64,000 nt of DNA. It comes from Eledone cirrhosa (taxonomy: Eukaryota). The stretch spans positions 362,762,001 through 362,826,000 of the forward strand of contig OZ024743.1 of assembly GCA_964016885.1 (NCBI GenBank), written 5' to 3'. Under the pieces are notes generated by a model. That model did no database searches. It was not told where the DNA came from and saw only the letters and a list, made by a program, of their open reading frames with translations. Position numbers and translations under genes: made by a program. Below are positions 8,304 to 64,000 of the stretch, one piece after another (position 1 is the first letter of the stretch; every line of letters begins with the position of its first letter).

Positions 8304-8355
<52 letters not shown>

Positions 8356-22260: not shown

Positions 22261-22521
22261 GCATATATATATATATATATATAGTACATTATGAAGAGAG
22301 AAGAAGTTTAGGTATGATACATCTTATTACTAATTATATCTAAATGTTTCTTCTCTCTTCATAATGTACTTTAAAGCTCTGATACTGGTTCAGTCTAATT
22401 CATTCGGATTGGTTTGTCCCAGTTATTCATAGAGCAACATCGGTTAAGGTTGGCACCATTAACTCAGGGATGGATGTGGATATACTCATGTATCTGTGTG
22501 TTTCTCAATATATTGTATATA

Positions 22522-23020
22522 TATATAATGGAAAATTTGAACAGGAACAAAACACAGAGGCAGTACAACGAATGTTTATTAATTTCACGCTCTGGAGAGT
22601 GGGGTGGTGGTGGGGAACGACGTTTCGGGCATAAGCCCTTCTTCAGGTGAAAAGTGTGTGGGAAGAGAGTTCAAAGGGTGTGTAGGGGAGTAGTGGAGAG
22701 ACATATAGCGAAAAGGGGTGGGAGGAAACGGTGCGAATGAAATTAAAAATAAAAGCATGATCAAAATAAAATAAAATTAAAATGGGATAAAACAGGTGGT
22801 GGAAGGGTGTGGGGTGTGTAGGGGTGGTGGCGGGTGGAGTGGGGAGAGGGAGACGGGGTGTCCGAGCGGGGAGGGCTGAAGGTGGTGTGTGTGTGTAGGT
22901 GTACGTGTGTGTGTGTATGTGAAAGCAAGGGTTGGGGGAAGAACGGGGTTGCATGTTCAGGAAGAGGTGTGTGTGGGGTGGGGTGTAGGTCGGAGTGTGT
23001 GTGCGTGTGTGGATAGAGGG
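22522..23020 (-). repeat. 3' pseudo-LTR of the Penelope-like element
   Basis: Direct repeat of 26828-27329. Confidence 0.9.
22615..22650 (-). ncRNA. Minimal hammerhead motif in the pLTR (second copy 26922-26957)
   Basis: CTGAAGA-A-GGGC ttat GCCC-GAAACGTC; stem I is weak. Confidence 0.65.
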
Positions 23021-23943
23021 GTGGGGGGAGAGGAATCCGGAGGCTGAAGGTGTAAATATGTGGTGGAAAGCACGTGTGTGTGGGGTTTAAGCGTGTTGTG
23101 GGTGTAGGTGGCGTGTGGGAAAAAAAATTTTTTTTTGGTGTGTGTGGGTGAGTTATAAAGGTGATTCCGTAAGATGTGGTTGAAAGGTTGGTAAACTCCT
23201 AGGATGGTAGTTGATTCCGCGGTCAAGCTCCACATACGAGTAATCCATGAAGAGATGGTCGGAAGAGGAGAGATGTGGGGTGCCCGCGCAACAGGAAGTG
23301 CTCAAGGCGGTAGGAGTGCTGTGTGTCTGTGTGTGCTGGGAGGTGGTCAGAGGGCATAGCAGCAGTAGGGTGGAATGGTAAAGGGGCGAGGATGGGTAGG
23401 TGTGAAAGTTGGAGTGAGGAGGGTGTGTGTATTAGTAGAGGTGTTAGTGGGATGAGTGAGTGTGGAGAAAGGGTTGAATGCAGGTGTGAGTGGGGGTTAG
23501 TGGTGGTAGGGTGTGTAGAGTTGGTGGTGTACGAGGGTGTGTGGGTACGTGTGCGTGGGGTTGGGGGTGTTAGTGATGTTAGTTGCGTGTGAGGTGGGTG
23601 GTGTAAGTGGGTGCGTGTATTCGTGTGCTTGGGGTCAGGGGGTGTTAGTGATGTTAGTTGCGGGGTGGTGGGATGGATGTGTGGGGGTGAGGGTTAGTGG
23701 TGGTAGTAGGGTGTGTGTTTAGTATGAGCGCGTGTATATATGTGCCGGTGGGTGTGTGCGTGTGATAAGGAGGGGGGGGGGAGAAGAAGGGAGGGATGTT
23801 AGTATGTTAGTTGGGGAAGTGTGGTCGGATGAGAGGTGGAGTGGAGGTGTTAGTATTGTTAGTTGTGGGGTGGGCGGTGAAAAGGAGGGGTCTGTTAGTG
23901 GTGTTAGTGGGGGATATGTGTGGGGGGAGGGGGCGGTCGAAGG

Positions 23944-26572: not shown

Positions 26573-26827
26573 AAAATCATAAAGGTAAAAACACAGGCAA
26601 TCGTGAACAAAAAATCATAGAAATAAAATTGTAAGAACACAGGCAAAAAATCATATACGAAAATAAACAAGTACAGTAACAAAATCAAACAAAGGTAATG
26701 CGTGGAAGGAAAGACCAAGTGTGGGAAGGTGTGTAAAGTTCAGAGAGTGGTCACGGTGGATTAGATCGGGGTTGACTCGGTTGTTAAGTTATGTTCCAAA
26801 GGAATGGAAGCCGTGTGAGCGTGTATT

Positions 26828-27329
26828 ATATATAATGGAAAATTTGAACAGGAACAAAACACAGAGGCAGTACAACGAATGTTTATTAATTTCACGCTCT
26901 GGAGAGTGGGATGGTGGTGGGGAACGACGTTTCGGGCATAAGCCCTTCTTCAGGTGAAAAGTGTGTGGGAAGAGAGTTCAAAGGGTGTGTAGGGGAGTGG
27001 TGGAGAGACATATAGCGAAAAGAGGGTGGGAGGAAACGGAGCGAATGAAATTAAAAATAAAAGCATGATCAAAATAAAATAAAATTAAAATGGGGTAAAA
27101 CAGGTGGTGGAAGGGTGTGTAGGGGTGGTCGCGGGTGGAGTGGGGAGAGGGAGACGGGGTGTCCGAGCGGGGAGGGCTGAAGGTGGTGTGTGTGTGTAGG
27201 TGTACGTGTGTGTGAGTGTGTGTTTGTGTGAAAGCAAGGGTTGGGGGAAGAACGGAGTTGCATGTTCAGGAAGAGGTGTGTGTGGGGTGGGGTGTAGATC
27301 GGGGTGTGTGTGCGTGTGTGGATAGAGGG
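26828..27329 (-). repeat. 5' pseudo-LTR of the Penelope-like element
   Basis: Direct repeat of 22522-23020. Confidence 0.9.
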
Positions 27330-31239: not shown

Positions 31240-31800
31240 ATATTTCGTTTCTGAATTTGTTTAGCAAGATTCTTTATCTAAAATCGTGTGTTGAAACCGA
31301 TATTGTTATACTTTGGGAGGGTCATGTTGCCAATAAGAAACACACGCACCTGTTGCTTTCACTTCACTTTATTATAGTAGATTTATAAATTTAGGAATTT
31401 ATAAATTTCCGGTTGGTTGGTTGGTTCCACAACCAGATGGTTGTTTATATATTGTCAAAGTTCTTTCGTCACACATTCTGTGACCTCTTCAGTGACTGGG
31501 GATTCTTTTCTTTGTTTTTGTGCCTCTCCTTTGTTCTGTCCTACGCCATCTTGTTTCTGTGTGTGTGAAACAAGATGGCGTAGGACAGAACAAAGGAGAG
31601 GCACAAAAACAAAGAAAAGAATCCCCAGTCAGTGAAGAGGTCACAGAATGTGTGACGAAAGAACTTTGACAATATATAAACAACCATCTGGTTGTGGAAC
31701 CAACTAACCAACCGGAAATTTATAAATCTACTATAATAAATTGAAGTGAAAGCAACTGGTGCATCTGTTTCTTATTGGCAACATGACCCTCCCAAAGTAT

Positions 31801-31810
<10 letters not shown>
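31240..31810. repeat. Head-to-head inverted pair of family Y pLTRs
   Basis: 31300-31558 is the reverse complement of ~31568-31808; centre CTTGTTTC tgtgtgtgt GAAACAAG. Confidence 0.9.
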
Positions 31811-31851
<41 letters not shown>

Positions 31852-32269: not shown

Positions 32270-32570
32270 GAGAGCTCTATGTGCTATGACCGATGATTCC
32301 ATGGTTACGGCAAATGCAGACAGCCTGAATGGTGAGCAGATCTGGTCCCCGTTTGCCAGACACGTTTTCCTACTACACATCTCTTTGACGTCTTGAATCA
32401 ACTGAAGACTAAGACTGAGTTCCTAGTACTTCTAATATTGTCAGGCACTCATAACCCTCTACCAGATGAACATAAGGTGAGTGTTAGTATTCTATAAATG
32501 ACTAGTGGTGGAGAGAAGTGACGTTGTTCACGAGGAAGCTCTTGACACCGATGAAAATTAACTGGCACTT
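32270..32570 (+). mobile_element. Old, decayed Tx1 ORF2 fragment
   Basis: CTGAATGGTGAGCAGATCTGGTCCCCGTTTG resembles the LNGEQVWSPF segment of copy B. Confidence 0.55.
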
Positions 32571-33084
32571 ATATTCCGCCCCCGTTACCTACGCAAGTTT
32601 GGAATCGGACATCTTGGAGCCACACACAGAATCGCCGAAGAGATTTTACGAGTAAAGCCAACTGGCAGGAAACTTAGATGTTAACCACTATCAATATGCT
32701 TGGATAAAATCCATGAGCCCGGTTGGTCTCGATTGGGGATCCAGCTGGATTAGTTGGAGACGGTTGCTTCTGATAGGACGTTCTGGAAGGTGTGAAATAG
32801 TGGGAGAAGAAGAAGAAGAAGAAGAAGAAGAAGAAGAATCAAGCCCAGCATTGGACTATAGATCCCGAAGTGGTGAAAGATCAAGTGGACCTCGGTGGGA
32901 TACAAAATGAAATTGTCGATAGCTGGATCGAATACTGCAAGGCATTCTACCCGACAATACTGGTTCTTTGAAAATGTATTGTCTTACGCTCTTATTTCAA
33001 ATAAATATCAACTCGGAAATATATTAAAAATAGACTTCAAGTAGTAATAGAAGATTGCGTCAGCATAAAATAGCGTGACTGTTG

Positions 33085-39080: not shown

Positions 39081-40439
39081 AAGCTTCTTGTTTCATGGTC
39101 GGAACAGAGCCCTTAGACTACTACTAGGCGATAATGTTTTAGAAGCTTTCAAACTGAAATAAATAGGGATTAACATTCGAAAATATCGACCCAACAGTGA
39201 AAAATGTTGCGTTGAACATAATGTGTGGCATTGTTAGTGATTGATCATTCTCCAGGCTACACCTAGAATGCCGACATGTTTCAGACATGAATTTCTTTCG
39301 TAGTAGTTTACTTTGCGCCATGCACTACTTCTTTCCTTAAGCCTACAGATCAGCGCATCATGTTTAATGTTAAGACTACTCTCTATCTTGTTAAAGAAAC
39401 TAATTGCCAAAATAAACAATCTATCAGGTATTTGTCACAACACTACCATACCAGGAAGACCATATCAAAGGATCCTGGGATAAGGTATCCGAGAGCTGTG
39501 AGAAAGTTGGGAAAATGCTAATGTCAGAAGCATGTGATTACTTCTTGGAATTTGACGAAGACAAGACCAGGAGTCTTCCATAACATTGCTGGCGTAACTT
39601 ATGAATGGAGAATGCAAAATATCAACGTGGAATATTTGGAGGAGTTTATAGATCCTCATTATAAAACGTTTTCTGTTGAAGAGCGGGAGGAGTTAGCTCA
39701 GTAACGCATCCTAAATGTGCCTGAAAACCCTGCTGCAGAACGAGGAATACCAGAACAACTGCACCATCAAGTTTAAGGAAATTGTGGACCAGTTTACTTA
39801 GAACTACTGAGATTGGATGAGAAGTAGCAAGGTAAAGGGTTTCTTTTTAGACGTAGTATCTTGCTACAATGAATTGCTTCGTGAATCTAGAATAAGCACA
39901 CAACATTACATGCATTCTTTGAATAAGGAACCTATGTGTAAGGAAGAAGCACCACATGGAGCCTCCTCTCAGACACAACCTCTTCTGTCATATACCTCAC
40001 TGCTGCTTTCCAATTCAATTAATGGCATGTAGACGTGTGTTCTTGTGGTTAAAGGTGATGAATTTAACCGGCTTCATAATTTTATTATAAACTTAGATTG
40101 CAATTAATTGTACGTTTTCTAATTTTATCATGACTGTTGATCAGATAGAGTGACATTACATAATGTGAGGTTATCTAAAATCATTAAGTGATTGGTGGAA
40201 GTGAGTTTAGGTGGAATTTTCGATCGCTTAGCAATGTCTACTATTTTTATTTGTGCCGCTATCTGATAAAAATAGCCTAACAGGCTATATTTTTATTTGT
40301 GTCTCTACTGATAAAAATAGCCTAACACGCTATATTTTTCCTTTCTTTCTTTTTCTTCTTTTTCTTTGTTTCATTTATGTCTCGTGTCACGTGGGGTACC
40401 AAACCTTTGCCCTGACGTCACACAAAATATTAATGTTTT

Positions 40440-40645
40440 GTTTCTACATTAGGCACAAGGCCAGCAATTTGAAAGGAAGGGGAAGTTGATTAAATCGACC
40501 CCAGTGAGTTACTGATACTTTATATTATCGACCCCATAAGGATAAAAGGCAAAGTTAGCCTCGGCAGGATTTGAACTAAAAATGTAAAGGGCCGTAACTC
40601 TATGCTACGAATCATCGTGTCCCACGCTCTACCGATACTGCCAAA
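40440..40645 (-). mobile_element. tRNA-derived SINE, Nin/Deu-domain type
   Basis: Homologous to 19690-19870 and 46025-46215. Confidence 0.8.
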
Positions 40646-41195
40646 CCATATATTATTTATATATTTCATTCACCTTTTTACTGCTTGTTTGCGCCTATTT
40701 CACAATAAAATTTTCTGACTGCTGCATGTCAATATAATTAAATAAAACTGTGACAGCTCATAGCCCCGTCTCCCCACGCAAGATTTTGTTCTCCTCATAG
40801 AAAAGCCATTAAAGTACATATATCTATATCTATTTGTTAATAAATATGTGCTCATTTTCATTGTGAACTAGATTTTATGTGCGTAATATACCCAGCAAAT
40901 AGAGACCTATAATCACTATTTGCTGTTGGTTAATACATGCAGCAGGTGGTAGGTCATACAGTCGTACATTTGATTCAATTTCTTCTGACAAGTTGATATT
41001 GCTTTGGCTATGATATATGCAACACATTAACTTTTCTGCGTTTGTTCAGGCAACAACATACACAGAAACATGCACTCAACATCATGTATTTTCTTCCAAA
41101 TATAATTTGTTAGTCTGAACACCATTGAAATATGTACCACAGCTTTATGAATAAAGGAATTGTAAACACCTGCACCGAACTTCGCAATTGTCCTA

Positions 41196-45911: not shown

Positions 45912-46225
45912 TAGGTTAACTTTGCCTTTCATCCTTACGGGGTCGATAAAATAAAGTACCAGTAATGTACTGGGTAATTGCTGGCCTTGTGCCAAAAGTA
46001 GAAACAATTATATTATTAACATTTAGGGCGGTGGATTGGCAGTATCAGTAGAGGGTCGGACGCCATGCTTTTACGCAAAGAGTTATGTCCCTTTACGATC
46101 TGAGTTCAAATCCCGCCGAGGTTAACTTTGCCTTTCATCCTTACGGGGTCGATAAAATAAAGTACCAGTAATGTACTGGGTAATTGCTGGCCTTGTGTCA
46201 AAAGTAGAAACAATTATATTATTAA
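45912..46225 (+). mobile_element. Tandem SINEs: 5'-truncated copy (45912-46010) + full copy (46025-46215), Nin/Deu-domain type
   Basis: A box TGGCAGTATCAG, B box GAGTTCAAATCC, GCCTTTCATCCTTACGGGGTCGATAAAATAAAGTACCAG; TATATTATTAACAT repeated at all three junctions. Confidence 0.85.
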
Positions 46226-46689
46226 CATAGTACATGTAAAAATGGTGGAGTTTACCGTAAAAAGAATAATTAACTTAATAACTCCTTGGTTAGTAAATAT
46301 ACTTCAATAATTGAATTTCCTTGATCTTCTCCCTCTTGTCACTCAGACAATCGCTGTTTTCATTTTACATTAATTTAAATCAATTACAACAATTTTCTTT
46401 CCTATTTTCTTTAATCATTATCAAACATATATCCACCAAGTTAATATGATTTGTTATACCTTTGTATCCGTTTGTCTGTTATCTATCTATTTTCTGACAG
46501 CTATTGAGATTTAGGTTCTGTTGTTCTTTTCCGAAAATAAATGCTTTGAAAAATCTACATAAATAGCTAATTATATCATAGTATGACAGTGTGGTAGAAA
46601 GGTAGACAGACAGATAGAGAGAGGCAGGTAGATAGGTGAGGAAGATATATAGGTAGAGAGGTAGGTGCGGAGGTAGATAGATACACAGA

Positions 46690-49600
46690 TCAGCCACGCC
46701 CGGACAGTGCACCAATGCGTGCGCAACGGTTTCTTCGTGACGCACGCATCTAGGGCAAATCTTTTTCGAGGGATCCCTGCCCGAGGCCCGTGTCTGTAGA
46801 GCTTCTCTCGAGCGGGTAGAGCCCACCGGAAGCACTGCCAGGCCAGTGACTTCTGGAAGTTATCCATTGGTCCCGGGCCGAAAGTCCTACCGAACAGGCT
46901 GGCCAGTTCGTCCTCTTCCATGTCCAGCGACTCTCCAAGGGTGTCATCGCCCCTGCTAGCCACCAGCCCTCTATAGAATGACGAGGTGGATTCTCCACCG
47001 ATGGCCGGGTCCGCTTGCCAGAGAGCCCTGAGCGCCTGGGCACACTCAGTGTGCCAGTCGCCCAGTTTTCCGGATCTTTGCTTGACCCAGGACTGCAGCT
47101 CGGTGAGCGAGACGAGTCTCGGAAAGGCTCGTCTCACGAACGGAGCCCACACCGGTTGACCAGTGAGGAATACCTGTAGGTGCCGTAGCCTTAATGCGTG
47201 CCTACGCATCATCAACCACGGCATTCCCAGCCCTTCTTTCGAAGGTTGTTGGCAGCAGATGGATCTTCTCACCATGGGAGGGCGCTTCTTCCAAAGAAAT
47301 TGAAAGAGCATGCGTTCCATGGTGGTGAGTGTTTCCTTAGGGCAAGGCACGACAGTCAGGCGGTAGTAGGTGACGGACGCTATGTAAATGTTCGCCACCT
47401 CCGCCCGACCTTTCAGGGACAGCTTACACTTGGCCCATTTCTGGGTCAGTGCAAACACCTTGCTCGTAACCTCGCCCCAGTTCTTTTCCACCTGGAGGTC
47501 CGGTCCAAACCAGACCCCAAGCAACTTCACCGGGCCCTCCGTCCAGTGTCCGACAACACCGTCGGCGAGGCATCAGTCTGCCTCTCCACGTTCCGAGTTG
47601 CAGCCCGATGGATTTTTCCTGGTTCAGTTTCGCTCCTGACAACCTTTCGTATTCCTCCAGTAAGGTACCGATCGCCTCGATCTCAGAGTCGGTTGATACC
47701 ATTACTGTTACGTCATCGGCGTAGGCCGACACCGCTTTGCTCAATCCTGGTTCCAGGGGGATACCCTGCAACAACTCCAACTTCCTCAGTAAAGGCTCGA
47801 GAGTCAATACGTACAGAAGGGAGGAGAAAGGGCACCCCTGTCGAATGGATCGTGTGATTTCGAATGGCTTCGAAAGGTAGCCGTTCACCTTGATCCTAGA
47901 ACAGATGTGGTTGCTATGTAAGGCAGTGATCCAGCCTCTGAAAACAGGACCAAACCCAGCCGCCGCTAGCACCGCATCCAGGTAACCATGGTCGACCCTA
48001 TCGAACGCCTTAGACTGATCCAAGTTAATCAGGGCCCCACCGAAGCCGGGTTTGTTGCCAACCCTCTCTATGATGTATCGCATGAGGTGGAGGTTGTCGT
48101 GAATGGACCTGGATGGGATAGCACATGTCTGCGCATCTCCCACCAGGCTAACTACGACAAGCGCCAACCTCTTTGCTAACACCTTGGCCAAAATCTTTAA
48201 CTCTGTGTTTAGCAGGGTTATGGGCCGAAAATTATTTATACTATCGCCCTTGTTCTCGTCCTTCCTCACCAGCGAAACTACGCCCTTGGCTACAGAACAA
48301 GGAATTCTCCCGTTCTGCTGCCAATTGCAGTAGACTGCTTCGAGGAGTTCGGAGAAGAAGACCGGCATTGCTAAATAAAGTTCGTAAGGTATACCATCGA
48401 GACCTGGAGATTTGCGTCTGCTGCATTGGCTCAGCGCATCCCCGATCTCATCAGCCGAGATTGGTCCCTCGCAGGACTCTGCCTTTTCGCTCGAGAGACG
48501 CGGCAGGCCGTCGAGGTATGGACCGAAATCCACGTCCCCGCCCGGACCCTCGCCTCCCCCGAACAATCGGGCAAAGTGCCTTTGAAAGGCCTCGCACATC
48601 TGCTTAGGCTCCCGGATCACCCGTCCATCCTCGTCTTGTAAAGACCGGATGGTGGATCGATTTCCACTCTTAGCTTCTGTCACGCGGGCCCAGCCAACGG
48701 CTTTGGCCCCCTCATTACCTAGAGCACGTATTTTACTTCGAATGACGCAGCCTTCGTGCTTTGCATCGAAAAACTGGCTCAAGGCCGTCCTCGATGCCAG
48801 CACTCTGGCCACATCTTCGCTGTTGATTGCCTCTTCTAATTTACCTGTTAATTCTTTCTCGTTCCTATTCCTATCGGCAGCTAACATCTTGCTATAACTT
48901 ATTGATTCTGTTCTAATCTCTCTTTTGAGAGATGCCCACCATCGGTTGTTGACGATTGCACCCGTCCACCTCTCCTTAACTAATCTGCTAATCCGGTCTC
49001 TGTAAGCCTCTTTTGCCGGTAAAGACAAATTAAGTTTCCAGTAACCGGGACCCTGTCTATGTGTTCTCTCGAGGTTGACTACGCAGGTCACTAATTTGTG
49101 ATCTGTATAGCCAACCGTGAGAATTTCTGGACAGCTTAATATGTCCCTATCCTTACTTCTAACTAAGAATCTATCTAAGTACGATCTAGATTGACCACTG
49201 TGGTTCGTCCAAGTTGGCACAGTTGGAAAATCTAGTCGATATCTATCGACCAAGTTAAAACGGTCGAGTAACCCCTTGAGGCTGTTACACCCCCCTCTAT
49301 TAGGACATGCTCCTGCATAGTCCCAACGTGCATCTAGGATGTCATTCCAGTCCCCCGCTAGAAGCAGGGAACGCGACGTTCCCAGAAAAGTCTCCAGACG
49401 CTGGAAGAAGTCGGGTCGTTCAGCTCCGAAAGGGGAGTAGACGGCGACCAGTCTCAAGGCTGCACCTCCACTACTGCCAACGTCTAGCACCAACAAACGA
49501 CCTTCCGGGTCCGAGTGAACAACCTGTATGGCGAGACCCAGGTGTTTTTGCAGCAGTACGACAACCCCACCCCCACCTCCAGATTGACAGAGAGATGCGT

Positions 49601-49772
49601 GCACCTCAAAGTCATCGAAGGTAGGGGCCAGCTGCCGCACGACGCTGATCCGAGTCTCACAGATAACCATTACATTTATACCACGTGACCTGAGGTCATT
49701 TAGAAGCTTTGCTTGCTTCCAAGTTGAGCCCAGGCCACGTACATTCAAATATCCTACTCTTAACACATCCAT
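46690..49772 (-). pseudogene. ORF2 of copy C (782 uninterrupted codons, then frameshifts)
   Basis: ORF 47424-49772 with APE and RT (QGCPFS, YADD); continues in 46571-47530 and 46479-46835. Confidence 0.92.
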
Positions 49773-50513
49773 GTGGGCGGCAGAGCCAAAGGAGAGTGTA
49801 GAGACCTACCTTTCTGCTTCCCGGGGTTCGGGTCGCACGACTTCCATGGGGTCGGGGGTGTTGGGTGAAGGGGTGTCTTGTGGTGGTGTGGGGTTGTCAG
49901 TGTGGGTGGGGTTGGGGTGTTTGGAGTTGTGTTGGGGAGGGGAAGGGGAGGGGGAAAGCTTTTTAGGAGGACGCGGTTTATGGGTTTGACAGAGGGTGGT
50001 CCTACGTCCTCCTTAAAATCCTTTTTTAGTTTTTGGTAGAGGTTCATTGGGACCTTTATTAATTTTAATTGTGGATTGTTTTCTGAAAAAACAAAATTTA
50101 CCCCTTCGGTTTGTACCGAAGGGTTATTGTTTATGAGTTCATTTAATTTATTATTGTTTCTGTTGATGTAAGTATAGTGTAATGTCTTTTTTTCGGATGG
50201 TGTGAGTGTTTCGAAGAGGGGAGGGGCAGGTTTGGTTTTGTTTGTTGCTGGAGGGGTGTTTTGTGTTTTGTTGGATTGTGTTGACATTTGGGTAGGGGCT
50301 GTTGGGCCTTGTGTGTTTTGCACATGTTTTCTTTTTTTTCTTTTAATCTGTCTGAAGGACTCCGTTTCTTCCTCCGAATTCGTTGGGTTATCTTCAGTGT
50401 TGGAGGGAACAGGTATGTTTGCTGGTAGTGTTTCCGTGTTAGTTTTCTTTGGGGGGGGGGGATGTCACTATGTTAGACTGTGTTGTGTGTTGTGGCTGCG
50501 GTGGTTGTGTTGT
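46690..50513 (-). mobile_element. Tx1/L1-clade retrotransposon copy C, 5'-truncated and lacking its 3' end; (TATC)n-associated
   Basis: Begins mid-ORF1 directly after the (TATC)n tail of D; ORF2 breaks off after HCPGVADLC into degenerate TATC/TACC repeats; closely similar to copy F. Confidence 0.92.

Positions 50514-50568
<55 letters not shown>
50514..50568. repeat. (GATA)n microsatellite between copies C and D
   Basis: About 13 perfect units seen directly. Confidence 0.95.
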
Positions 50569-50796
50569 TGTTTCTTTATTAGCCACAGGGGCACAAAGAA
50601 GGGGACAAATACAAGGGGGAAGTTTACATACAATAAAAACGTGTAAAATATTATCACAAATGCAATTTAAAAATTAGTCGATTTTCCCCAATAGGGGGAG
50701 ACAGTTCATATGGGTATGAAAAAAAAATGTGCAACCCTCATCTCCAGGAGTACGAAGAGTTTGTACTCCTTTCCTCTCTTCCTCTTTTTCCTCAAA

Positions 50797-53700
50797 CTAC
50801 AGGCTGATATAGAGAGAAGGCCCATTCACTCGGGCCATTCTCGCCACTTTCACCCACCTTTCATAAAACTTGTTGGGGTACAGCACCTCTCTCTCCATCC
50901 TGATTCTTCTTCCAAAGTGGTATTTGAAAAAAAGAATCAGTTGTTGGCCGGAGAGAAAGGTGTCTGACCTCAGCCCTTTGAACTTTGTCCACCATACAAC
51001 CTCTTTCGCCATAGCTATCACACAAAGGAAAACCGCCTATCCTTCCCTTTTGAAGGAGGGTGGCGGTTTGATCTTGACAATGGACTCGTTGGTCAACTGG
51101 ATTGGTCCCACCCGCGACAATAGTTGTTCCACATAGCCCCACAGGTCGGTGACGCCCGGGCAGTGTATGAATGCGTGCGCGACGGTTTCTTCGTCTCGTA
51201 CGCACCTCGGACAGATCTTTTTTGCAAGGTCCCTGCCCGGGCGCCCATGTTTGTAGAGCTTGTCTCGAACTGGTAGAGCTACTCGGTAGCACTGCCAGGC
51301 TAGGGACTTTTGAAAGTTGTCCATCGGTCCCGGGCGGAAGGTCCTACCGAACAGACTGGCCAATTCGTCTTCCTCTACGCCCACAGTTTCACCGAGCACG
51401 TGGTCGCACTTGCTGCGGATCAACCCTCTATAGAATGACGAAGTGGAGTCTCCACTGATCGCCGGGTCCGCCTGCCAGAAGGCTGTGAGCGCCTGAGCAC
51501 ATTCGATGTGCCAGTCGCCCATTTTCCTCGGTCTTTGCTTGACCCAGGACCGCAGCTCGGTCAGCGAGACGAGTCGTGGGAAGGCTCGCCTCACGAACGG
51601 GGCCCACACCGGTTGTCCGGTGAGGAATACGTAGAGATGCCGCAGCCTCAGCGCGTGTTTGTGCATCGTCAGCCACGGCATCCCCAGCCCTCCGTTGGAA
51701 GGGCGTTGGCAGCAGATGGATCTTCTCGCCAAAGGAGCCCGCCTCTTCCAGAGAAATTGGAAGAGCGCGCGCTCCATTTTGGCGAGCGTTTTGGCTGGAC
51801 AAGGCACGACGGTCAAGCGGTAGTAGATGACGGACGCTATAAAAGTGTTCGCCATCTCCGCTCGACCTTTCAAGGATAGTTTGCACTCGGCCCACTTCTG
51901 GGTGAGTGCAAACACCTTGGCCGACACCTCGTTCCAGTTCTTCTTCACCTTGAGGTCCGGACCAAACCAGACCCCGAGCGGCTTTACTGGTCCTTCCGTC
52001 CAGCGTCCGACGACGCCATCGGAAGGCATCGGTTTGCCTCTCCACGATCCGAGTTGCAAACCGATGGACTTATCCCGCTTCAGCCTCGCTCCTGTGAACC
52101 TTTCGTATTCCTTCAGTTAGGTGCCGACTTCCTCGATTTGCGAGGCGCTCGACACCATTACTTCCACGTCGTCGGCGTAGGCCGACGCCGCTTACCGCAG
52201 TCCCGGTTCCAGAGGTATCCCTTGCAATAGCTCCAACTTCCGTAGTTGTGGCTCGAGAGTCAATACGTACAGAAGGGAGGAGAGAGGGCATCCCTGTCGA
52301 ATGGAACGGCTCCGAGATGTGGCCGTTCACCTTAACCCTTGAGCAGATGTTGCTGTTATGCATTGCAGCAATCCAGCCCCTGAACACGGGTCCGAAGCCT
52401 GCCGCCTCGAGCACTGCATCCAGGTAACGATGGTAAACCCTATCGAAAGCTTTAGACTGATCCAAGTTGATCAGGGCCCCACCGAAGCCGGGTTTACACC
52501 CTACCCTCTCTATGATATATCGCATGAGGTGGAGGTTGTCGTGTATGGACCTGGTCGGGATTGCGCATGTCTGCGCTTCTCCCACCAGGTTCTCGACGAC
52601 AAGCGCCAGCCTCTTTGCCAACACCTTGGCCAAAATCTGTAACTCTGTGTTTAGCAGAGTTATGGGTCGGAAGTTGCCTATGTCATCTCCCTTATTCTTG
52701 TCCTTCCCGACTAGTGTGACTACGCCCCTGGTCACAGAACTGGGAATTCTCCCGTTCTGTTGCCAGTTGCAGTAGACCGCTTCCAGGAGACCGGAGAATA
52801 AGTCCGGCATTGCTACGAAAAATTCGTAGGGTAGACCGTCGAGACCTGGTGATTTGCGTTTGCCGCATTGGCTCAACGCGTCCCCTATCTCATAAGCTGA
52901 AATCGGCTTTTCGCAGAACTTCGCCTTGCTGTCCGAGAGTCGCTGTAGGTCGTCGAGGTATGGACCGAAATACATAGCCCCTCCCGGCGCGCGACCCTGT
53001 CCGAACAGCTGAACAAAGTGCCGCTGAAAGTCCGCACACAACTGCTTCGGCTCACGTATCACGCGCCCGTTTTGGTCCTTCAAAGACCGAATCGTGGACT
53101 TGTTGCCACTTTTTGCCTCCGTCACTCGGGCCCAGCTAACAGCTTTGGCTCCCTCGTTTCCCAGAGCACGTATTTTGCTTCTGACAACGCAGCCCTCATG
53201 CTTTGCGTCGAAGAACTGGTCCAAGGCCGTTCTCGTTGCTAGCACGCTGGCTACGTTGCCACTTCTAATTGCCTCTTCTACTTTATCTACCAGTTCTTTC
53301 TCAGTTCTAATTCTATCTAACGCTAATTCTTTACTAAAAACTAACGAGTCTAATCTAACTGCCCTCTTGAGAGAGTACCACCATCTGTTGTTGACAATGG
53401 TCCCTGTCAAGTGTTGTTTAACTAAAGTGCTAATCCGTCTACTGTAGGCTTTGCATGTCGGTAACGACAAGTTCAGCTTCCAGTAGCCGGGTCCTTGTCT
53501 ATGGGTTCTATCAAGGTTGACCATGCAGGTCACTAGTTTGTGATCTTAATAGGCAACCATGAACATTTGTGGACAGCTTAACATGTCCCTATCCTTATTT
53601 CTAACTAGAACCCTATCTAGGTACGATCTAGATGTTCCGCTGCGATTAGTCCACGTCCACAGTGGCACAGTCGGAAAATCTAGTCGATATCTATCGGCCA

Positions 53701-54220
53701 GGTCAAATCGGTCGATTAACTGTTTGAGGATGTTACACCCCCCTTTATCGGGACATGCTCCCACATAGTCCCAACGTGCATCTAGGATTCCATTCCAGTC
53801 CCCCACTAAAAGCAAGGAGCGGGACATTCCCAGAAAAGTCTCTAGACGTTTGAAGAAGTCTGGCCGCGGTGTCTCGGATGGGGCATATGCGGCCACCAGC
53901 CTGAAGGCTCCACCTTCACTACCGTCAACGTCTAGGACCACCAGTCGACCCTCCGGGTCCAGATGTACCGTCTGTGTTACGAGGCCCAGGTGTTTCCGCA
54001 GCAAAACGGCAACCTCGCCCCCACTTCCCGGCTGACAGAGAGATGCGTAGATCTCAAAATCATCGAAGATGGAGGCCAGCTGTCGCTCGCTGTGGATCCT
54101 GGACTCGCAAATGGCTACTACATCCATACTGTGCGACCTGAGGTCGATTAAGAGTTTGCCCTGTTTCCAGGGCATCCCCAGGCCGCGTACATTCACACAC
54201 CCAACTCTTATATTGGCCAT
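50797..54220 (-). pseudogene. ORF2 of copy D (APE + RT + Cys/His domain)
   Basis: ORFs 53546-54220, 52070-53533, 51037-52059 and 50797-51021. Confidence 0.92.
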
Positions 54221-54257
54221 GTTGGTTCTGAAAAGTTAAAAGAGGAGAAGAAAACAC

Positions 54258-55033
54258 TCACCTCTTCGTCTCCCGGGGATCAGGCCGCACGGTTTCCATT
54301 GGGTGTTAGAGGAGTTGTCTGGGTGGGTGGTGGTTTCCGGTGGGGTGGGGACGGAGATGTTTGGTGGGGTGGTGGTGTCTGGGGTGAGGGTGGGGAAACT
54401 TTTTAAAAGGACGCGGTTAATGGGTTTAACACAAGGATTACCCACGTCCTTAGGAAAGTTTTCCTTTAAAGACTTATAGGTGTCCGTAGGGACCCTAATC
54501 ATCTTTAAATTAGGTTTGTCTACACAGTTCGAAAAAGTTTTCCCTTCGGTTTTCACCGAAGGGTCGTTGGAGATGACCTCCATTAAAGTTTTGTTTTTAC
54601 TGTTATGTATGTGTAATGTTCTTGTTCTGTTGCGGTGGTTTTTGTCTGTTGTTCTTGTGGGAGCTTTCGTTTTGTTGTAGGTGTTTGTGTTTGGAGTGAT
54701 GTTGTCGTGGTTTTGTTTTCGGGACGGGGGGTTTTTGTTTGTAATGTTTGTGTTGTTTGTGTTGGTGGTTGTATGTTTGTAGTGATGTTTGTTGTTTTTT
54801 TTGTTCTTGTGGTGTCTTTTCTTCTTTCTTTTCGAACGGAGAGGCTCTCGCTCATCATCACTTGGTGATGATGTGGGGGCCTCGTCCGTTGTGGTCTCTG
54901 TGTTATTTGGAAGGGGTATGTTTTGGGGAGCTGTTGTGTTTGTGGGTGTTTTTGCAGTGGTTTTAGGTGGAGTGGGTTGGGTGGGACTGTGCTTGCAGGT
55001 TGGTTTGTTGTTCTTGTTTTGGTTGTGTTTGCG

Positions 55034-55069
<36 letters not shown>

Positions 55070-55995
55070 GGTGGTGGTGGTGGTGGTGGTGGTGGTGGTG
55101 GTGGTGGTGGTGGTGGTGGTTGTGTTGTTTTGGGTGTTGGCAGTAATGCCTCTTTTTTTTTAGTTAACTGAGGACAGTAAGCCTTCAGGTGACCACTGCT
55201 TAAACAGTGGTAACATGAAGGCCGCCTACCCTCAACAGAAATGTTTATGTGTGAAATTCCATCCAGAGGCACACGTTGGGGTATTTTAGCTATCCGTTCT
55301 GGCCTCATTTGGACCAGAACTTCCATGCTTTTACCATTGAATGTGCCTCTGGAGGACTTTCCCACCGAAATGATGGTGTCTTCGTCGAAATCGATGAAGC
55401 CAGTTAGAATCCACCAGACGTTTACATTTGGTGCAATGTTCAAAAGTTTTATTTTTTTAGTTCTTTTTCCCATATATGTGGGGAAGAAGGTGTAAAGGGG
55501 GGGGGACACAATCGGCGATACAGAATATTTTTGTGCTGTCAATTGGTCTTTCAACAACACCGAAATGCTTCCAAAAAGTTTCCCTTTTTGGATGAAGGCA
55601 ATATCCTTCATGGAATTCTTCAGAACCAGTTCAATATCGTTTTGGGATAACTGAACTGGTTTTTTCGACACATTTGAAACCGTCCTAAAAATTACTGTTT
55701 TTAGAACAGTTTCTCTGCGTAACTGTTGAGGAGAAGTGATGCTGAAAGCACCACTCTCACCAAAAGTTACGTACTGTTTTGCATCGCTTAACATTTCCCT
55801 AGCATTGGAAATGTCAAGGTATGTGAACAGTTCCGTCTTTTGGACGGTTTGAGCAAAAGAAATCTTTTCCTTGTTCGTAGAGTTGTTCGTGTTGCTGCTG
55901 TTGTTGTTGGTGGTGTTGTTGTTATCATTGTTGTTGTTGTTGGTGGTGGTGGTGTTGTTGTTATCATTGTTGCTGTTGTTGTTCTTGTTGTCATT

Positions 55996-56028
<33 letters not shown>

Positions 56029-56142
56029 CTGGTTGGTGTTGTTTATATTTTGCAAGTTATTGGTGTTTGTGTTAGTGTTGATGTTACAATCAACGTCCGA
56101 CATCGTGTTTTCAAAACTGACGACATTTTCGATGTCTTTCAA
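54258..56142 (-). pseudogene. ORF1 of copy D (poly-Asn N-terminus, CCHC knuckle, poly-Pro/poly-Gln)
   Basis: EGRRPSCYHCLSSGHLKAYC in ORF 54583-56142; ends METVRPDPRETKR-stop. Confidence 0.85.
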
Positions 56143-56714
56143 TGAGGTGGTGAGATAGATAGATAGATATTAAGATAAGTGGGTAGGTAGGAAGTTAGGT
56201 AGGTAGATAGTTATTTAAATAGATATATAGGCAAAGAGACATACAGATAGCTAAATACAGATAGGCAGAAATTAATCAAATTACCATTTCCCTTTCAAAG
56301 TTAGCATGTCCTTGTGCTTTCTTATAACACCGAATTGGTAGGCCACTTCCGAATCAAGTCTATTTTCTATTCTCTGTTTGGGTTTGCCGTAATTCTGTTA
56401 TCGATTAATTAATTTTGCAATTCACACCTGATAATGTCGTCTTAGTCTTACGTCATGATCAGATGCTGTAACTCGGCCAGTGAAATAGGAAATATGTATT
56501 GTGTTCTTGCATTATTTTGAGTCAGGCCTTCTGTTGTTTTTAAATAAATATTCAACTCCGTTCCTGCACCAACCACAGGATACCACATCTACGATGGATG
56601 ATTTCCATGACCTCCAATGCTTTAACTTATTATATTATGGTCATTTGCACTGGGACGCACACATTTTTAATTTCAAATTTACTCACTGTTTCTTAACTCA
56701 AACGTTATATATAT

Positions 56715-57066
<352 letters not shown>

Positions 57067-57849
57067 TTCCTTCGAATGAAACAGTTCTAGTTCCGTAGAA
57101 GCCATTTATATATATATAGAGATATATATATAATGACTAGAATAACCAGGATTTAATTACATTATCTAATAGATTTACGGACTTTTTTTTTCAAATACAG
57201 TAGGAAGTACTATTTATTTCTCTGTACTGAAATTCCTCAGAATCATTAAATATTACAAAAAACATAATTATTTACCGACCACATGCCCGAATATCTCCAT
57301 TTCGAAAACGTAAACAACTTTTAAAATCTAGTCAGGAAAACGTTAAAACTTATGGAAGACTAAACGCACAAATTAAAATATATTAGTAATACATATACTA
57401 TGTAGTAATTAGTTTGACTCTTAAAACCTAATACACGTATATGAGACTCAAATAAACATTATAGGAATAAATTTAGAGCCTATAAATTTAATAATACTTA
57501 TTTGAATTAACAACCAATTTCAATACTAACATTAATATGTGAAGAAAAACAATATAAAAATGATGGAAGCTTAATTTAGTGATAATCAGTAGGATGAGTT
57601 CTAATTATTAAGAAACTAATCGCCTAAAAATAGTATTTATAGAAGTGAAAGAGGATTATTTATAGAATAAAGTTATGACTGTAAATTAAACAAAGCATAT
57701 TCAGCTACACCCACACACACGCAGATATCTATAGATATACTTATCTATACACACATACACACTTATATCCCACCATATATATATATATTTGAAAAAAAGG
57801 AAAAGAATGACTTCACTTGTAGTGTTAAAAAATGTTATGATTTATTTGT

Positions 57850-58005
57850 TTCTATTTTAGGCACAAGGCCAGCAATTATCCAGTACATTACTGGTACTTT
57901 ATTTTATCGACCCCGTAAGGATGAGAGGCAAAGTTAACCTCGGCGGGATTTGAACTCACATCATAAAGGGACGTAACTCTATGCTTCAAAGCATGGTGTC
58001 CGATA
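57850..58005 (-). mobile_element. tRNA-derived SINE, Nin/Deu-domain type, head truncated
   Basis: Homologous to 46025-46215; abuts the 5' end of copy E. Confidence 0.8.
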
Positions 58006-61000
58006 CTGGAGATTGAACAACCCGATCTCCAGGAAACGAAAAGGTAAGTGCACCCTTCCGTCCTTTTTCTCCAACTCTTCTTCACCAACATGTTTCGGAA
58101 GGAACTGGACGTCGAAGTACAGCAAGTGCACTTGGACCCGGAGGGTAGACTGGTAGTCCTAGACGTCAACAGTATTGGAGGTGGAGCCTTCAGACTGGTG
58201 GCCGTTTATGTCCCGACCGGGCAATCGCAATCACGGCCAGACTTCTTTAAGCGTCTAGAGTCTTTTCTGGGAACGTCTCGCTCTTTACTTTTAGTGGGGG
58301 GATGGGATGGTATCCTAGATGCACGATGGGACTATGTGGGAACATGCCCCAGTAGAGGGTGATGCAACAGCCTCAAAACTTGAATCAGCCAATTCCAACT
58401 GGCCGATAGGTATCGACTGGATTTCCTGACTGCACCACAGTGGACGTGGGCAAACCGCAGCGGGACATCTAGATCGTATTTAGATAGGTTCTTCATTAGA
58501 GAAAGGGACAAGGAGATGTTAAGCTGTCCACGAATGCACATGGTTGCCTATTCAGATCACAAATTAGTCGTCTGCTTAGTCAACCGTGATAGAATACATA
58601 GACAAGGAGCCGGATACTGGAAGCTGAACGTAGAGCTTACAGTGAACGGATAAGTAGACTAGTCAAGCAACAGTTAACGGGAGCCATCCTCAACAATAAA
58701 TGGTGGTACTCTCTCAAGAAAGCGATTAGAATAGATTCGATAGGGTTTAGCAGAGAGTTAGCCTTAGAGAAAAACAAAATAGAAAGAGAACTAGTAGCCA
58801 AGGTAGAGAAGGCACTTAGAAGTGGCAACGCGGCTAGAGTGTTAGCGTCGAGAAGGGCACTGGACCAGTTCTTCGATGCGAAACACGAAGGCTGCGTGGT
58901 CAGAAGCAAAACACGTGCTCTAGGAAACGAAGGAGCGAAAGCTGTCAGCTGGGCCCGAGTGGCGGAGGCGAAAAGTGGCAACAAGTCCACGATTCGGTCT
59001 TTGAAAGACCAAAACGGACGCGTGCTACTTAACCCCAAGCAAATGTGCGCGGTCTTTCAGCAGCACTTTGCGCGACTGTTTGAGCAGCACGACGGTGAGC
59101 CGAACGGGGCAATGGACTTTAGTTCATACCTCGACAACATGCCGCGTCTCTCGAACACGGACGCCGAGTTCTGCGAAAGACCGATCACGGACACTGAGAT
59201 ACGGGACGCTCTGGGCCGCTGCGAGAAATGCAAGTCACCCGGTCTAGGTGGTCTACCCTATCAGTTTTACATAGGCATGCCGGACTTGTCCTCTGGCGTC
59301 CTCGAAGCCGTCTACTGCAATTGGCAGCAGAACTGGAGAATTCCCAGTTCTGTTGGCAAGGGCGTAGTAACGCTGATCAGGAAAGACGAGAACAAGGGGG
59401 ACGAAATTAACAACTTCAGGCCCATAATCTGCTCAACACAGAGTTAAAGATTTTGGCCAAGGTGCTAGCGACGAGGTTGGCGCTTGTCGTCGAGAACCTG
59501 GTAGGGAAAGCGCAAACGTGTGCAATCCCGACCAGGTCCATACACAATAACCTCCACCTCATGCGATACATCATAGAGAGGGTGGGTAGTAAACCCGGCT
59601 TCGGTGGGGCTCTTGTCAATTTGGATTAGTCTAAGGCATTCGATAGGGTCGACCACCGATACTTGGAAGCGGTTCTCAAGGCGGCCGGTTTCGGTCCCGT
59701 GTTCAGAAGCTGGATCGAGGCGATGCACACCAGCATTTGCTTGAGGGTCAAGGTGAACGGCTACCTATTGGAGCCGTTCGCAATCACGCGTTCCATTCGA
59801 CAGGGGTGCCCTCTCTCCTCCATTCTGTATGCATTGACTCTAGAGCCACTACTGAGGAAATTGGAGCTGTTGCAGGGCATCCCTCTAGAACCGGGACTGC
59901 GGAGAGCGGCGTCGGCTTATTCTGACGACGTGACGGTAATGGTGTCGAGCACCTCGGAAATCGGGGTGATCGGCAACTTACTGAAAGAATACGAAACGCT
60001 GACGGGAGCAAATCTAAACTCGGACAAGTCTATCGGTTTGCAACTCGGTACGTGGAGAGGCAAACCGATGACGTCCGACAACGTCGTTAGACGCTGGACG
60101 GACGGACCGGTGAAATTGCTCGGGGTCTGGTTCGGTCCAGACCTCCAGGTGGAGAAAAACTGGAACGAGGTCACGGCCAAGGTGTTTGCGCTCACCCAGA
60201 AACGGGCAGAGTGCAAACTGCTTTGAAAGGTCGAGAGGAGGTGGCGACTACTTTCATAGCGTCCGTCATCTACTACCGCTTGACTGTGGTGCTTTGTCAC
60301 CGTGACCACCTCGCTAAGATGGAACGCATGCTCCTCCAGTTTCTGTGTAAGAATCAGGCTCCGCTAGTGAGGAGATCCGTCTGCTGTCAGCACCCTTCCA
60401 ACGGAGGGCTGGGAATGCCGTGGCTTATGATGCGCAAACATGCATTGAGACTGCGGCATCTCCAGGTATTCCTCACCGACCCCCAACCGGTGTGGGCACC
60501 GTTTGTGAGACAGGCTTTCCCACAGCTTGTCTCGCTGACGGAGCTGCAGTCCTGGATCAAGGAAAGACCAAAAACGATGGGCGCCTGGCACATTGAACGC
60601 GCTCAGGCGCTCACAGTCCTCTGGCAAGCGGGCGCAGCAATAAATGGAGACTCCACTTCGACATTCTATACAGGGATTGTACGTTACAAGGGCGACGACG
60701 TGCTGGGAGAGACTCTGGGCATCGAAGACGATGAGCTCACCAGTCTGTTTGGTAGGACTTTCCGCCTGGGACCTATGGACAACTTCCAGAGGTCCCTGGC
60801 CTGGCAGTGCTACCGAGGAGCTCTACCGGTTCGTGACAAGATCTACAGGCACGGACGCCCCGGCAGGGATCCTTTCACGAGATGCGCGCAGGACATTGAA
60901 ACAGTCCTGCACGCAATTGTACACTGCCCGGGCGTAACCGACCTGTGGAACTATGCAGAACAACTGCTGTCGCGTATGGGACAAATCCAGTTGACTGCCG

Positions 61001-61523
61001 AGTCCATAGTAAGGATCAAATCGCCAGCCTCTTAGAAAAACGAAAGAGAGGCGGTTTTCCTCTGTACGGTGGCTATGGTGAAACAAGTTACATGGTGGAC
61101 GAGATTGAAAGGAGTGAGGACAGATGCCTTTCTCTCCGGACAACAATTGATTCTCTTCTTTAAGTATCACTTTAGAAGGAGAATCAGAGTGGAGAGAGAG
61201 GCACTGCACCCCAGTAAATTTACTGAAAGGTGGGTGAATGAAGCGAAAATGGCCCGAGTGATTGGGCCTTCTCTGTTTATAAGCCTGTAGGTCGAAGAAG
61301 AGAGCAAAGGGAAGAAAGGTGCACTTGCACAACACGCTCCTGGAGTTGAGGGTTGTTCTATCGACGGGGTATTAAACAACCCATTTGTGGCGCCTCCCCC
61401 CTATTGGGGATTTCGATTGTTGTAATTGTTTGTTTTTATATTTTTAACACGACTGTATGTAAAGTGCCCGGCATGTCTTTGTATTGTCCCCTTTTCTTGT
61501 GCGCCCTTGTGGCTAATAAAGAA

Positions 61524-61524
<1 letters not shown>
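58006..61524 (+). mobile_element. Tx1/L1-clade retrotransposon copy E, 5'-truncated; (TATC)n tail
   Basis: Starts in the last ORF1 codons (LEIEQPDLQETKR-stop); ends AATAAAGAAATC-(TATC)n. Confidence 0.92.
58090..61290 (+). pseudogene. ORF2 of copy E, with stops, frameshifts and an N-terminal deletion
   Basis: ORFs 58048-58362, 58839-59447, 59663-60226, 60211-61035 and 61069-61290; YSDD at the RT site. Confidence 0.9.

Positions 61525-61577
<53 letters not shown>
61523..61577. repeat. (TATC)n microsatellite between copies E and F
   Basis: About 13 units seen directly. Confidence 0.95.
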
Positions 61578-61821
61578 TTATATACTACTATGATCTAGCT
61601 GTCGTCTGTTCTACAGTGTGGATGTCATTCACTTCGCACAGAAGTTTTGTTCAAATTTATTAAGGAAATTTTGTGAGTTCAAACTTAATTTTGATACAAT
61701 TGTGTAGCTTGACCCTCCGTCTGAACTGTCAGGCGGTGGGTCAGCTCATCTTTACCCCTCCTAGAGGTGAAAAACCTGTTTTAAAAAATTTTGTGTAAAA
61801 AATTTCAATCGTCTAACAGAA

Positions 61822-63717
61822 ATGTTAAACGCAGCGAACGAAAATAGTAGTGGGGGGACAGCGGTAAGAGTTGTAAGCTCGCACGCTTTAGTCCTCCCTT
61901 CCTTCCCAACTAACGTCATAGAGAAGGAAGGAAAAATGAAAATAAAAACGGACGAATCTGCGGAGAAAAAATTAAATGACGAAAACATAAATCTGGACTT
62001 GGATTCCAACAACGAAAAAAAAAAATTTGAAAAATTGCATGACAATACTAATAACACAAACAAAGACACAACAAACAAAAAAATAACAGTTGAAAATAAC
62101 ACCATATCAGAAAACAAAGCAGACGACAAGATTTCATTTGCACAGAAAACAAAGAAATCTTTGACTTATATAGCGGAAAACATTTCAGATGTGGTACGAA
62201 GGATCACGGACGCCAAACAATACATAAGTGAAGGTGAGAATGGTATTTTATTGGTAAAAATGCCTCAAGAATTCACGAAAGACATTGAAAGCCGAACGGT
62301 CAAGTTTCGGACCATCAACAACAGTACAAAAAAACCTGAACAGCCTTCTCAAGCAGATATCAAAACAGTACTCACAGAAGTACTGAATGAAACAACTTTC
62401 ATAAGAAAAGACAGACTGTATGGAAGCCTAGCAATTATCATGAAGAACGAATCGGCGGCAAAAAAATGTGCTTTGTCACCGATTCGTTCGAAAAATTTCA
62501 CCTTTTATCCATCTTATATGGGGAAAAAAAACTCAACGCATATGGCTGGATGCAATGATGCCAGATGTGGACTACTGCTGGCTCATAGCTGGCTTCATCG
62601 ATCCAGTGAATGACAACGTGATTTCCATTGGGAAAACCACAGGCAATGCGTTCAGTGGAACAGGTATAGAGCTGGTAGTACAAATGAAGCCTGAACGCAT
62701 CGCCCAAATACCCGACAGAATCCTATTAGAGGACCACGGGTATATAAACATTAGCGTGGAGGGGAGAAGGCCGTCCTGCCATATCTGTGCAGGCAGAGGG
62801 CACCTGAAGGCCGCTTGTCCCCAACTCAACAAAAAGAAAACCCTGCTACCAACACCAGCTCCACCACCACAACAGATAAACAAACAACAAAACTCAGTCC
62901 CACCCAACCCGTCCCTCAGTAAAACCACAACACCACCACAACACAAACAGTCACAACACATTACCCCAAAACAAAATACAGGCCCACCCAACCTCTCACT
63001 CAATAAAACAACACAACCACCGCAGACACAACACACAACACAGTCTAACATAGTGACATCCATCTCCCCCACAAAGAAAACCAACACGGAAACATTACCA
63101 GCAAACATACCTCTTCCCTCCAACACTGAAGATAACCCAACGAATTCGGAGGAAGAAACGGAGTCCTTCAGACAGATTAAAAGGAAAAAAAGAAAACATG
63201 TGCAAAACACACAAGGACAAACAACCCCCACCCAAATCGCAACACAATCCAACAAAACAGAAAACACCCTCCAGCAACAAACAAAACCAAACCTGCCCCT
63301 CCCCTCTTCGAAACACTCACACCATCGGAAAAAAAGACATTACACTATACTTACATCAACAGAAACAATAATAAATTAAATGAACTCATATACAATAATC
63401 CTTCGGTACAAACCGAAGGTGTAAATTTTGTTTCGTCAGAAAACCACCCACATTTAAAACTAATAAAAATCCCAATGAACCTCTACCAAAAACTAAAAAA
63501 GGATTTTAAGGAGGACGTAGGACCACCCTCTGTCAAACCCATAAACCGCGTCCTACTAAAAAGCTTTCCCCCTCCCCTTCCCCTCCCCAACACAACTCCA
63601 AACACCCCAACCCCACCACACACTGACGACCCCACACCACCACAAGACACCCCTTCACCCAACACCCCCGACCCCATGGAAGTCGTGCAACCCGAACCCC
63701 GGGAAGCGGAAAGGTAG
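61822..63717 (+). pseudogene. ORF1 of copy F (CCHC knuckle), frameshifted
   Basis: EGRRPSCHICAGRGHLKAAC; homologous to ORF1 of D; ends EPREAER-stop. Confidence 0.85.
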
Positions 63718-63750
63718 GTCTCTACACTCTCCTTTGGCTCTGCCGCCCAC

Positions 63751-64000
63751 ATGGATGTGTTAAGAGTAGGATGTTTGAATGCACGTGGCCTGGGCTCAAC
63801 TTGGAAGCAAGCAAAGCTTCTAAATGACTTCAGGTCATGTAGTATAAATGTAATGGTTATCTGTGAGACTCGAATCAGCGTCGTGCGGCAGCTGGCCCCC
63901 ACCTTCGATGACTTTGAGGTGCATGCATCTCTCTGTCAACCTGGAGGTGGGGGTGGGGTTGTCGTACTGCTGCAAAAACACCTGGGTCTTGCCGTACAGG
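63751..64000 (+). CDS. ORF2 N-terminus of copy F (APE endonuclease), partial
   Basis: MDVLRVGCLNARGLGSTWKQAKLLND...ICETR, open to the window end. Confidence 0.85.
   Translation, partial: MDVLRVGCLNARGLGSTWKQAKLLNDFRSCSINVMVICETRISVVRQLAPTFDDFEVHASLCQPGGGGGVVVLLQKHLGLAVQ

Follow-up and report, generated by a model that had tools for sequence, protein, structure and literature searches.

The DNA analysed here, hereafter the window, is a stretch of 64,000 nucleotides from the octopod Eledone cirrhosa (assembly GCA_964016885.1, contig OZ024743.1, positions 362,762,001 to 362,826,000 of the forward strand). Self-comparison of the window reveals six copies, A to F, of one group of long interspersed nuclear elements (LINEs), two of them (A and B) flanked by ATT repeats and four (C, D, E, and F) associated with TATC repeats. 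An original prediction, made from the sequence alone, had interpreted the TATC-associated copies as a sister subfamily that had switched its target.

The comparison copies A (4054-10007) and B (10023-15842) are both full length and lie on the reverse strand, the mosaic copy A bounded by (ATT)5 on one side and by a run of ATT and GTT (4022-4053) on the other, and B by (ATT)12 (15843-15880) and (ATT)5 (10008-10022). Also on the reverse strand are copy C (46684-50512), cut at its 5' end inside open reading frame 1 (ORF1) and again at its 3' end, and copy D (50569-56152), with ORF1, an ORF2 coding for endonuclease, reverse transcriptase, and zf-RVT domains, and a 3' untranslated region (UTR). The ORF2 of C has two frameshifts and no stops, that of D one frameshift and five stops. 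On the forward strand, copy E (58004-61523) contains the final ~60 nt of ORF1, the rest of ORF2, with an internal deletion of approximately endonuclease residues 2-75 (~75 codons), and the 3' UTR. Copy F (from ~61578, an approximate start, to 64000, forward strand) comprises a 5' UTR, ORF1, and the beginning of ORF2, and leaves the window.

ORF2 matches PF03372 (apurinic/apyrimidinic endonuclease, APE), PF00078 (reverse transcriptase), and PF13966 (zf-RVT), with no RNase H match in the same domain search, and the ORF1 of A, B, D, and F carries one CCHC-type knuckle. The endonuclease domain of C (49068-49772, reverse strand) keeps its reading frame intact (PF03372, E value 1e-8), and its predicted structure (predicted local distance difference test, pLDDT, 93) has the human L1 endonuclease as closest fold (template modelling score, TM, 0.81). 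The reverse transcriptase scores 92 bits against L1 ORF2p and 60-71 against R2. The copies are APE-type retrotransposons without long terminal repeats (non-LTR elements) of the L1 group, L1/Tx1-like in kind; the Tx1 label is a presumptive one, based on architecture. Their best protein match comes from Argonauta hians (58%), the nearest named reverse transcriptase matches are from Argonauta, Branchiostoma, fish, and frog, and a short piece recurs in an Octopus bimaculoides gene model; taken by themselves, these matches already suggest an octopod host.

C, E, and apparently D are truncated, and contig depth on the D body declines toward the 5' end in all four public runs searched. Judged from F, with which C is 95.5% identical over 993 columns (the match beginning at window position ~63008, within F), C starts inside ORF1 and is thus 5'-truncated, as had been proposed. 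Its ORF2 halts at ...GATCTGTG, ~570 nt before the end of D, and its 3' UTR is missing. D also appears to be 5'-truncated, to judge from an ORF1 frame open up to the junction and an ISFA motif only 289 nt from it, versus 553 nt in F, 625 in B, and 908 in A.

TATC at the element junctions

D starts directly after TATC. The left half of a degenerate TATC/TACC tract (56153-56260, reverse strand, its outer limit approximate) terminates at the D 5' junction in (TATC)4 (56153-56169). At its other end, the D 3' UTR terminates in AATAAAGAAACA, followed by a pure TATC tail of 13.8 units (~50513-50568, reverse strand) that separates it from C, whose 5' end lies at the very edge of this tail (50512, with 1 nt of ambiguity). 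The cut 3' end of C is joined straight to TATCTATCTACC, which belongs to a degenerate tract of TATC, TACC, and TGTC units that forms the right half (46683-46590, reverse strand). Finally, E terminates in a pure tail of 14.5 TATC units (61524 to ~61577-61581, forward strand), beyond which F begins; the 5' boundary of F is not fixable because the window holds a single copy of that end, and the spacing of ~20 nt originally given for E and F is accordingly uncertain. These junctions agree with the original prediction, which had noted the exit of C into TATC/TACC and had left unmentioned that C is 3'-truncated there and that D seems to lack its 5' end.

Altogether, in this one window with four copies, two of the four 5' ends (D and C) lie directly at TATC, that of F lies beyond a TATC run by an uncertain number of nucleotides, and that of E lacks it, while all three visible 3' ends adjoin TATC. 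D and C each have sense-strand TATC on both sides, and all five TATC junctions share one orientation. The 3' ends of D and E carry no poly(A), and in B, D, and E an AATAAA precedes the repeat by 7-10 nt. As already conceded in the original prediction, the 5' end of E adjoins a short interspersed nuclear element (SINE) of tRNA type, placed head to head with it (57832-58003, reverse strand) and missing its first ~30 nt. This junction may be a later deletion, and we still score it as a miss. For comparison, families of the Kibi/Koshi type have been recognized by the presence of the target repeat in >20% of their flanks (PMC4494074).

The outer tracts stand well above the local background. Both D+C flanks are degenerate, pyrimidine-rich, and of period 4, with lag-4 autocorrelations of 0.62 (tract 5' of D) and 0.51 (tract 3' of C). 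TATC, TACC, and TGTC tetramers were counted in 100-nt windows over the DNA outside the elements (36,675 bp); these flanks gave the two highest counts (13 and 11 tetramers; 14 and 13 when placed exactly at the junctions), and the third-densest window, with 7, adjoined the right tract. Likewise, among 73,480 oriented positions in host DNA, only 66 (0.09%, the junction tracts included) have at least two TAYC units immediately ahead of them on the upstream side. No LINE remnant upstream of D was found by tblastn or blastn. The outer tracts cannot be tails belonging to the copies that they adjoin, because one lies at the 5' end of D and the other at C, which has lost its 3' end. The simplest reading is that D and C together split one old degenerate TATC/TACC tract of ~200 bp. 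As evidence, we rank this split tract above the C/D junction, for which a template jump between RNAs could also account. The earlier argument that an element-encoded tail could hardly explain TATC at a truncated 5' end is supported, and is best borne out by the outer tracts.

The two lineages and their relatives

In the unrooted DNA trees of the endonuclease, linker, reverse transcriptase, and C-terminal parts, the ORF2 phylogeny is sorted by flank as anticipated, A+B being separated from C+D+E with bootstrap supports of 100, 99, 99, and 100, respectively; in the endonuclease protein tree the same split has a support of 96. In trees rooted with ten outgroups and including the relatives P0002-P0004, copies A to E form one clade with these relatives (100), within which the C-terminal part again unites A+B (100) and C+D+E (99). 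In the unrooted endonuclease and linker trees the Argonauta protein is placed with C, D, and E, whereas in the rooted tree it stands outside both groups (35). As far as sequence comparison can tell, there is support for a lineage of TATC-associated copies separate from those with ATT flanks. The two groups are less alike than had been thought. At the DNA level, C, D, and E are 75-80% identical to one another, A and B 79%, and copies of different groups 69-71%, so that the ORF2 of the two subfamilies is similar but hardly "highly" so; nor are they close relatives in their endonuclease proteins, which are 56-63% identical between groups, about as much as A is to B (63%). A itself is a recombinant with a breakpoint at ~5500-5600, 82-94% identical to B downstream and 67-90% upstream in 100-column windows.

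Among the endonuclease residues, those singled out as candidate determinants of specificity do not follow the flanks. The last residue of SYLDRF/SYLDRV is F in A, C, and E and V in B and D, and the letters around DH are, from A to E, AYSDH, SYTDQ, GYTDH, AY-stop-DH, and AYSDH, both unsorted by flank. The suggested alignment of the domain does yield a signal elsewhere: of 215 informative endonuclease columns, 14 divide strictly according to flank, against 6 for the best of the other splits, and at 43 columns the two groups have no residue in common (E is missing from these counts over residues 1-77). The segment preceding SRSYLD aligns to the betaB6-betaB5 hairpin of L1, also present in the model of C, and this hairpin influences the L1 nicking profile (PMC1950540). 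C, D, and E have S at the hairpin tip, A and B have L or I; among relatives the tip is I in P0129 (80% identical to B) and S in P0003, which lies on the A/B side. In C numbering, the candidate specificity positions are this tip (192), 17, 22, 61-63, and 83-86. A one-residue target switch is unlikely, since grafting the Tx1L loop on the L1 endonuclease did not transfer specificity (PMC1950540). With ~40% of endonuclease positions differing, copies A to E are less useful for mapping specificity residues than had been hoped.

Outside the window, the D body (50570-55000) is a very high-copy family in four organisms, each represented by a public run (32,145 matching contigs in X1, 96,939 in X4, 3,532 in X5, and 4,168 in X6). 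Among 12 of the 233 joints of run X4 (organism B), 2 link the 3' end of the element, via ATATCTATC and CTATATTTATCTGTCTT in element orientation, to a truncated copy of which only the final 271 or 255 nt are left. These head-to-tail, TATC-like joints repeat the D-C pattern in another organism and lend it modest support. By contig scanning, no close relative with flanks was found in metagenome, viral, or genome contigs: C-terminal patterns gave 0 confirmed among 517 candidate stretches in metagenome contigs, reverse transcriptase patterns gave 2 confirmed among 83, which were distant, uninformative relatives (44-59% in short segments), and the viral and genome contigs gave 0 of 34 and 0 of 63 candidates, respectively, with no DNA matches in either. 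The ESM Atlas returned only generic clusters combining endonuclease and reverse transcriptase. A distant Tx1-like reverse transcriptase fragment (L001:275-720) lies between copies of what we take, by eye, to be U2 small nuclear RNA-like genes; the arrangement recalls Keno, but the fragment is not at a site inside the gene.

Some other features recur among the six copies. A splice-donor-like site, AG|GTRAGT (AGGTAGGT in C and F), is present in all of them, together with a pyrimidine run 30-45 nt ahead of the ORF2 ATG, at ~7699, ~13698, ~49811, and ~54263 (reverse strand) and at ~58042 and ~63712 (forward strand); the string AGGTRAGT has 6 matches in the window, of which 4 belong to LINE copies. 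A (9975-10007) and B (15810-15842) have in common the 5'-terminal motif GG.CG...CGTA..ATCGTGAGCTC, their 5' UTRs and ORF1 being otherwise divergent.

Proposed mechanism and competing explanations

We propose that C, D, E, and F represent an old octopod L1/Tx1-like lineage that would favour insertion into (TATC)n, with TATC on the element sense strand. Insertion would most likely take place by target-primed reverse transcription, the APE endonuclease nicking the GATA strand and the freed end priming on the 3' end of the element RNA, with repeat remaining on both sides. Since repeat is left on both sides, each insertion would re-create the target and later copies could stack head to tail, as D-C and E-F may have done. 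The 3' loss of C could have come about by internal priming at the target-like ATCTGT or by later deletion. That this lineage has a real preference for TATC, by whatever route, appears to us quite probable; that the preference is led by the endonuclease has about even chances. The structure of the copies, their junctions, the enrichment inside the window, and the division of the trees are shown by the sequence itself; from these we infer the extension of the preference beyond the window, the position of the nick, and the endonuclease as its chief determinant.

Several observations weigh against such a preference or against its origin in the endonuclease. The informative insertion events number only ~3, two of them in one tract and one for E-F, the 5' end of E lacks TATC and that of F is uncertain, and target-site duplications are not readable inside a repeat. 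The joints of run X4 are explicable as tandem duplications, one of them having a depth of 142 versus ~26 for single contigs, and the 24 loose contig ends examined (of 7,628) turned out to be divergent paralogues, with no junctions among them. A and B share ATT flanks despite endonucleases only 63% identical. The split by flank is weak when taken alone because five lineages give it in 3 of 15 trees, and in the rooted trees of residues 1-735 the support for C+D+E is 34, with 65 for A+B+P0003+P0004. With this value standing against 99 in the C-terminal part and the root not placed within the clade, the directional target switch originally proposed finds no support.

A possible but unlikely alternative keeps the preference and places its determinant in a 3' module: the RNA would read through into (UAUC)n and anneal to the nicked GATA strand, with an endonuclease of weak specificity, so that the difference between TATC and ATT would track the C-terminal domain, the 3' UTR, and the tail. 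The mosaic copy A speaks for it, being ~69-76% identical to B over most endonuclease-reverse transcriptase windows but 88-92% in the 3' third, with both copies flanked by ATT, as does the SINE that carries the last ~33 nt of A and likewise ends in ATT. The hairpin loop differs little between groups, the Tx1L graft failed as described above, and annealing of RNA to target is used by SART1 and R1Bm (PMC7265360). Nevertheless, the endonuclease tree still joins A to B, the strictly sorting endonuclease columns favour the flank over any other split, and the AATAAA ahead of the repeat argues against obligatory read-through. Single-sequence folds of the five 3' ends, made without a shuffle control, gave no shared 3' hairpin. 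A broader version, in which an octopod L1/Tx1-like radiation partitioned microsatellites (TATC versus ATT) and changed target by exchanging 3' modules instead of retuning its endonuclease, strikes us as improbable; under it, recombinants such as A and the SINE with the 3' end of A would inherit the target of that end.

It is equally improbable that there is no preference at all, the TATC tails being made by the element, the D-C and E-F tandems arising by template jumps, and the outer tracts being due to chance or decayed tails. In its favour, the tails of D and E are pure and equal in length, a template jump would leave the 5' end of a truncated copy flush with a tail, an age difference between C and D is not demonstrable (2 versus 6 lesions, p 0.29), and E has no TATC at its 5' end. 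What this explanation leaves unaccounted for are the tracts 5' of D and 3' of the truncated C, against the low background frequency given above; the remnant of a lost copy that it would expect upstream of D was not found there, and C and D come from families 79% apart. Still less probable, in our view, is that the junctions are secondary, pieces of elements having been moved beside repeats after insertion, by deletion or by unequal exchange between TATC tracts. Rearrangement is indeed common in the window, since C is cut at both ends, E internally deleted, the SINE decapitated, and A recombinant, but exchange between tracts deletes the intervening DNA and would not by itself produce flush truncated ends at three junctions, and the 5' junction of C has at most 1 nt in common with the tail. 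The preference of the C, D, E, and F lineage for TATC remains our preferred reading, and TATC is probably a further target unit for repeat-seeking LINEs of a known type.

Other repeats and comparison with known systems

The window contains other repeats. Besides the SINE next to E, tRNA-type SINEs occur at 46025-46228 and 45913-46022 (forward strand) and at 19682-19869 and 40438-40648 (reverse strand). The last ~33 nt of the SINE are shared with the 3' end of LINE A (4042-4076; 91%, E value 1.7e-6 in the window), and the family mostly terminates in ATT-like runs; to judge from these sequences, it may have been mobilized by the ATT lineage. A Tx1-type partner for an octopus SINE was not found in the literature searched. 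An old LINE remnant (32328-32615), a distant member of the group (40% to P0004), has (AGA)11 downstream (32805-32838). A dispersed repeat of ~270 bp (92-97% identical, with AACC and AAATTTAT runs) adjoins (TA)n in at least six places (648-914, 1216-1482, 3334-3600, 31300-31566, 31568-31848, and 56717-57002), two of its copies being back to back in opposite orientation. Finally, two direct repeats of ~510 bp (22514-23020 and 26822-27329, 95% identical) enclose a G-rich region (23223-26614) whose open frames have no Pfam match.

Dong belongs to the R4 clade and has a restriction-like endonuclease. It inserts into (TAA)n, as Waldo and Mino of the R1 clade do into (ACAY)n and (AC)n, respectively (PMC3812793). 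Like the TATC-associated copies, these are non-LTR elements targeting microsatellites, in the case of Waldo also with a tetranucleotide unit, but they belong to other clades and have other units. The mechanism of microsatellite targeting is described in that review as poorly understood. Closer in behaviour are SART1 and TRAS1 of Bombyx, related elements with differing sites in a simple repeat, in which swapping the endonuclease alters specificity; in addition, SART1 can prime internally at repeat-like RNA, the resulting copies being 3'-truncated and directly adjoining the repeat, as C does (PMC7265360). They differ in belonging to the R1 clade, in their telomeric TTAGG target and poly(A), and in a specificity established by experiment, here deduced from junctions (PMC7265360). 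The head-to-tail arrangement with a copy of the target in between resembles the tandem R1 elements of 28S ribosomal DNA, which arise by insertion into a duplicated target, with the difference that R1 inserts at a site of unique sequence, where a duplication of 14 bp can be read (PMC2718515).

In octopuses, L1-Tx1 elements are abundant and recently active, with 13 families and 421 recent insertions in O. vulgaris, and the available text of these reports does not mention target sites (PMC13282606, PMC8967140). A TATC- or GATA-specific Tx1 element was not found in the literature searched, PMC4494074 and PMC3812793 included; one may be listed in Repbase, in Kojima and Fujiwara 2004, or in the PMC4494074 supplements, which lay outside the search. 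A TATC target is probably new, while elements that target microsatellites, and relatives that differ in their unit, are already known, and a target switch as such is no novelty, since changes of target among related Tx1 families have been published (PMC4494074). Within the Tx1 clade, Kibi and Koshi of teleosts target (TC)n and (TTC)n, and crocodilian families (TTCC)n and (TTTC)n (PMC4494074). These are also APE-type LINEs in microsatellites of short unit, tetranucleotides included, with the unit differing among relatives; the TATC unit and the mollusc host are what sets the copies described here apart (PMC4494074). If the preference is real, TATC and a mollusc host would join the microsatellite targets of APE-type LINEs, and two high-copy lineages with natural recombinants in one genome would allow the part that the endonuclease plays in target choice to be told apart from that of RNA-tail annealing. 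Judged by their junction sequences, the copies would behave like Kibi and Koshi, with TATC as the unit.

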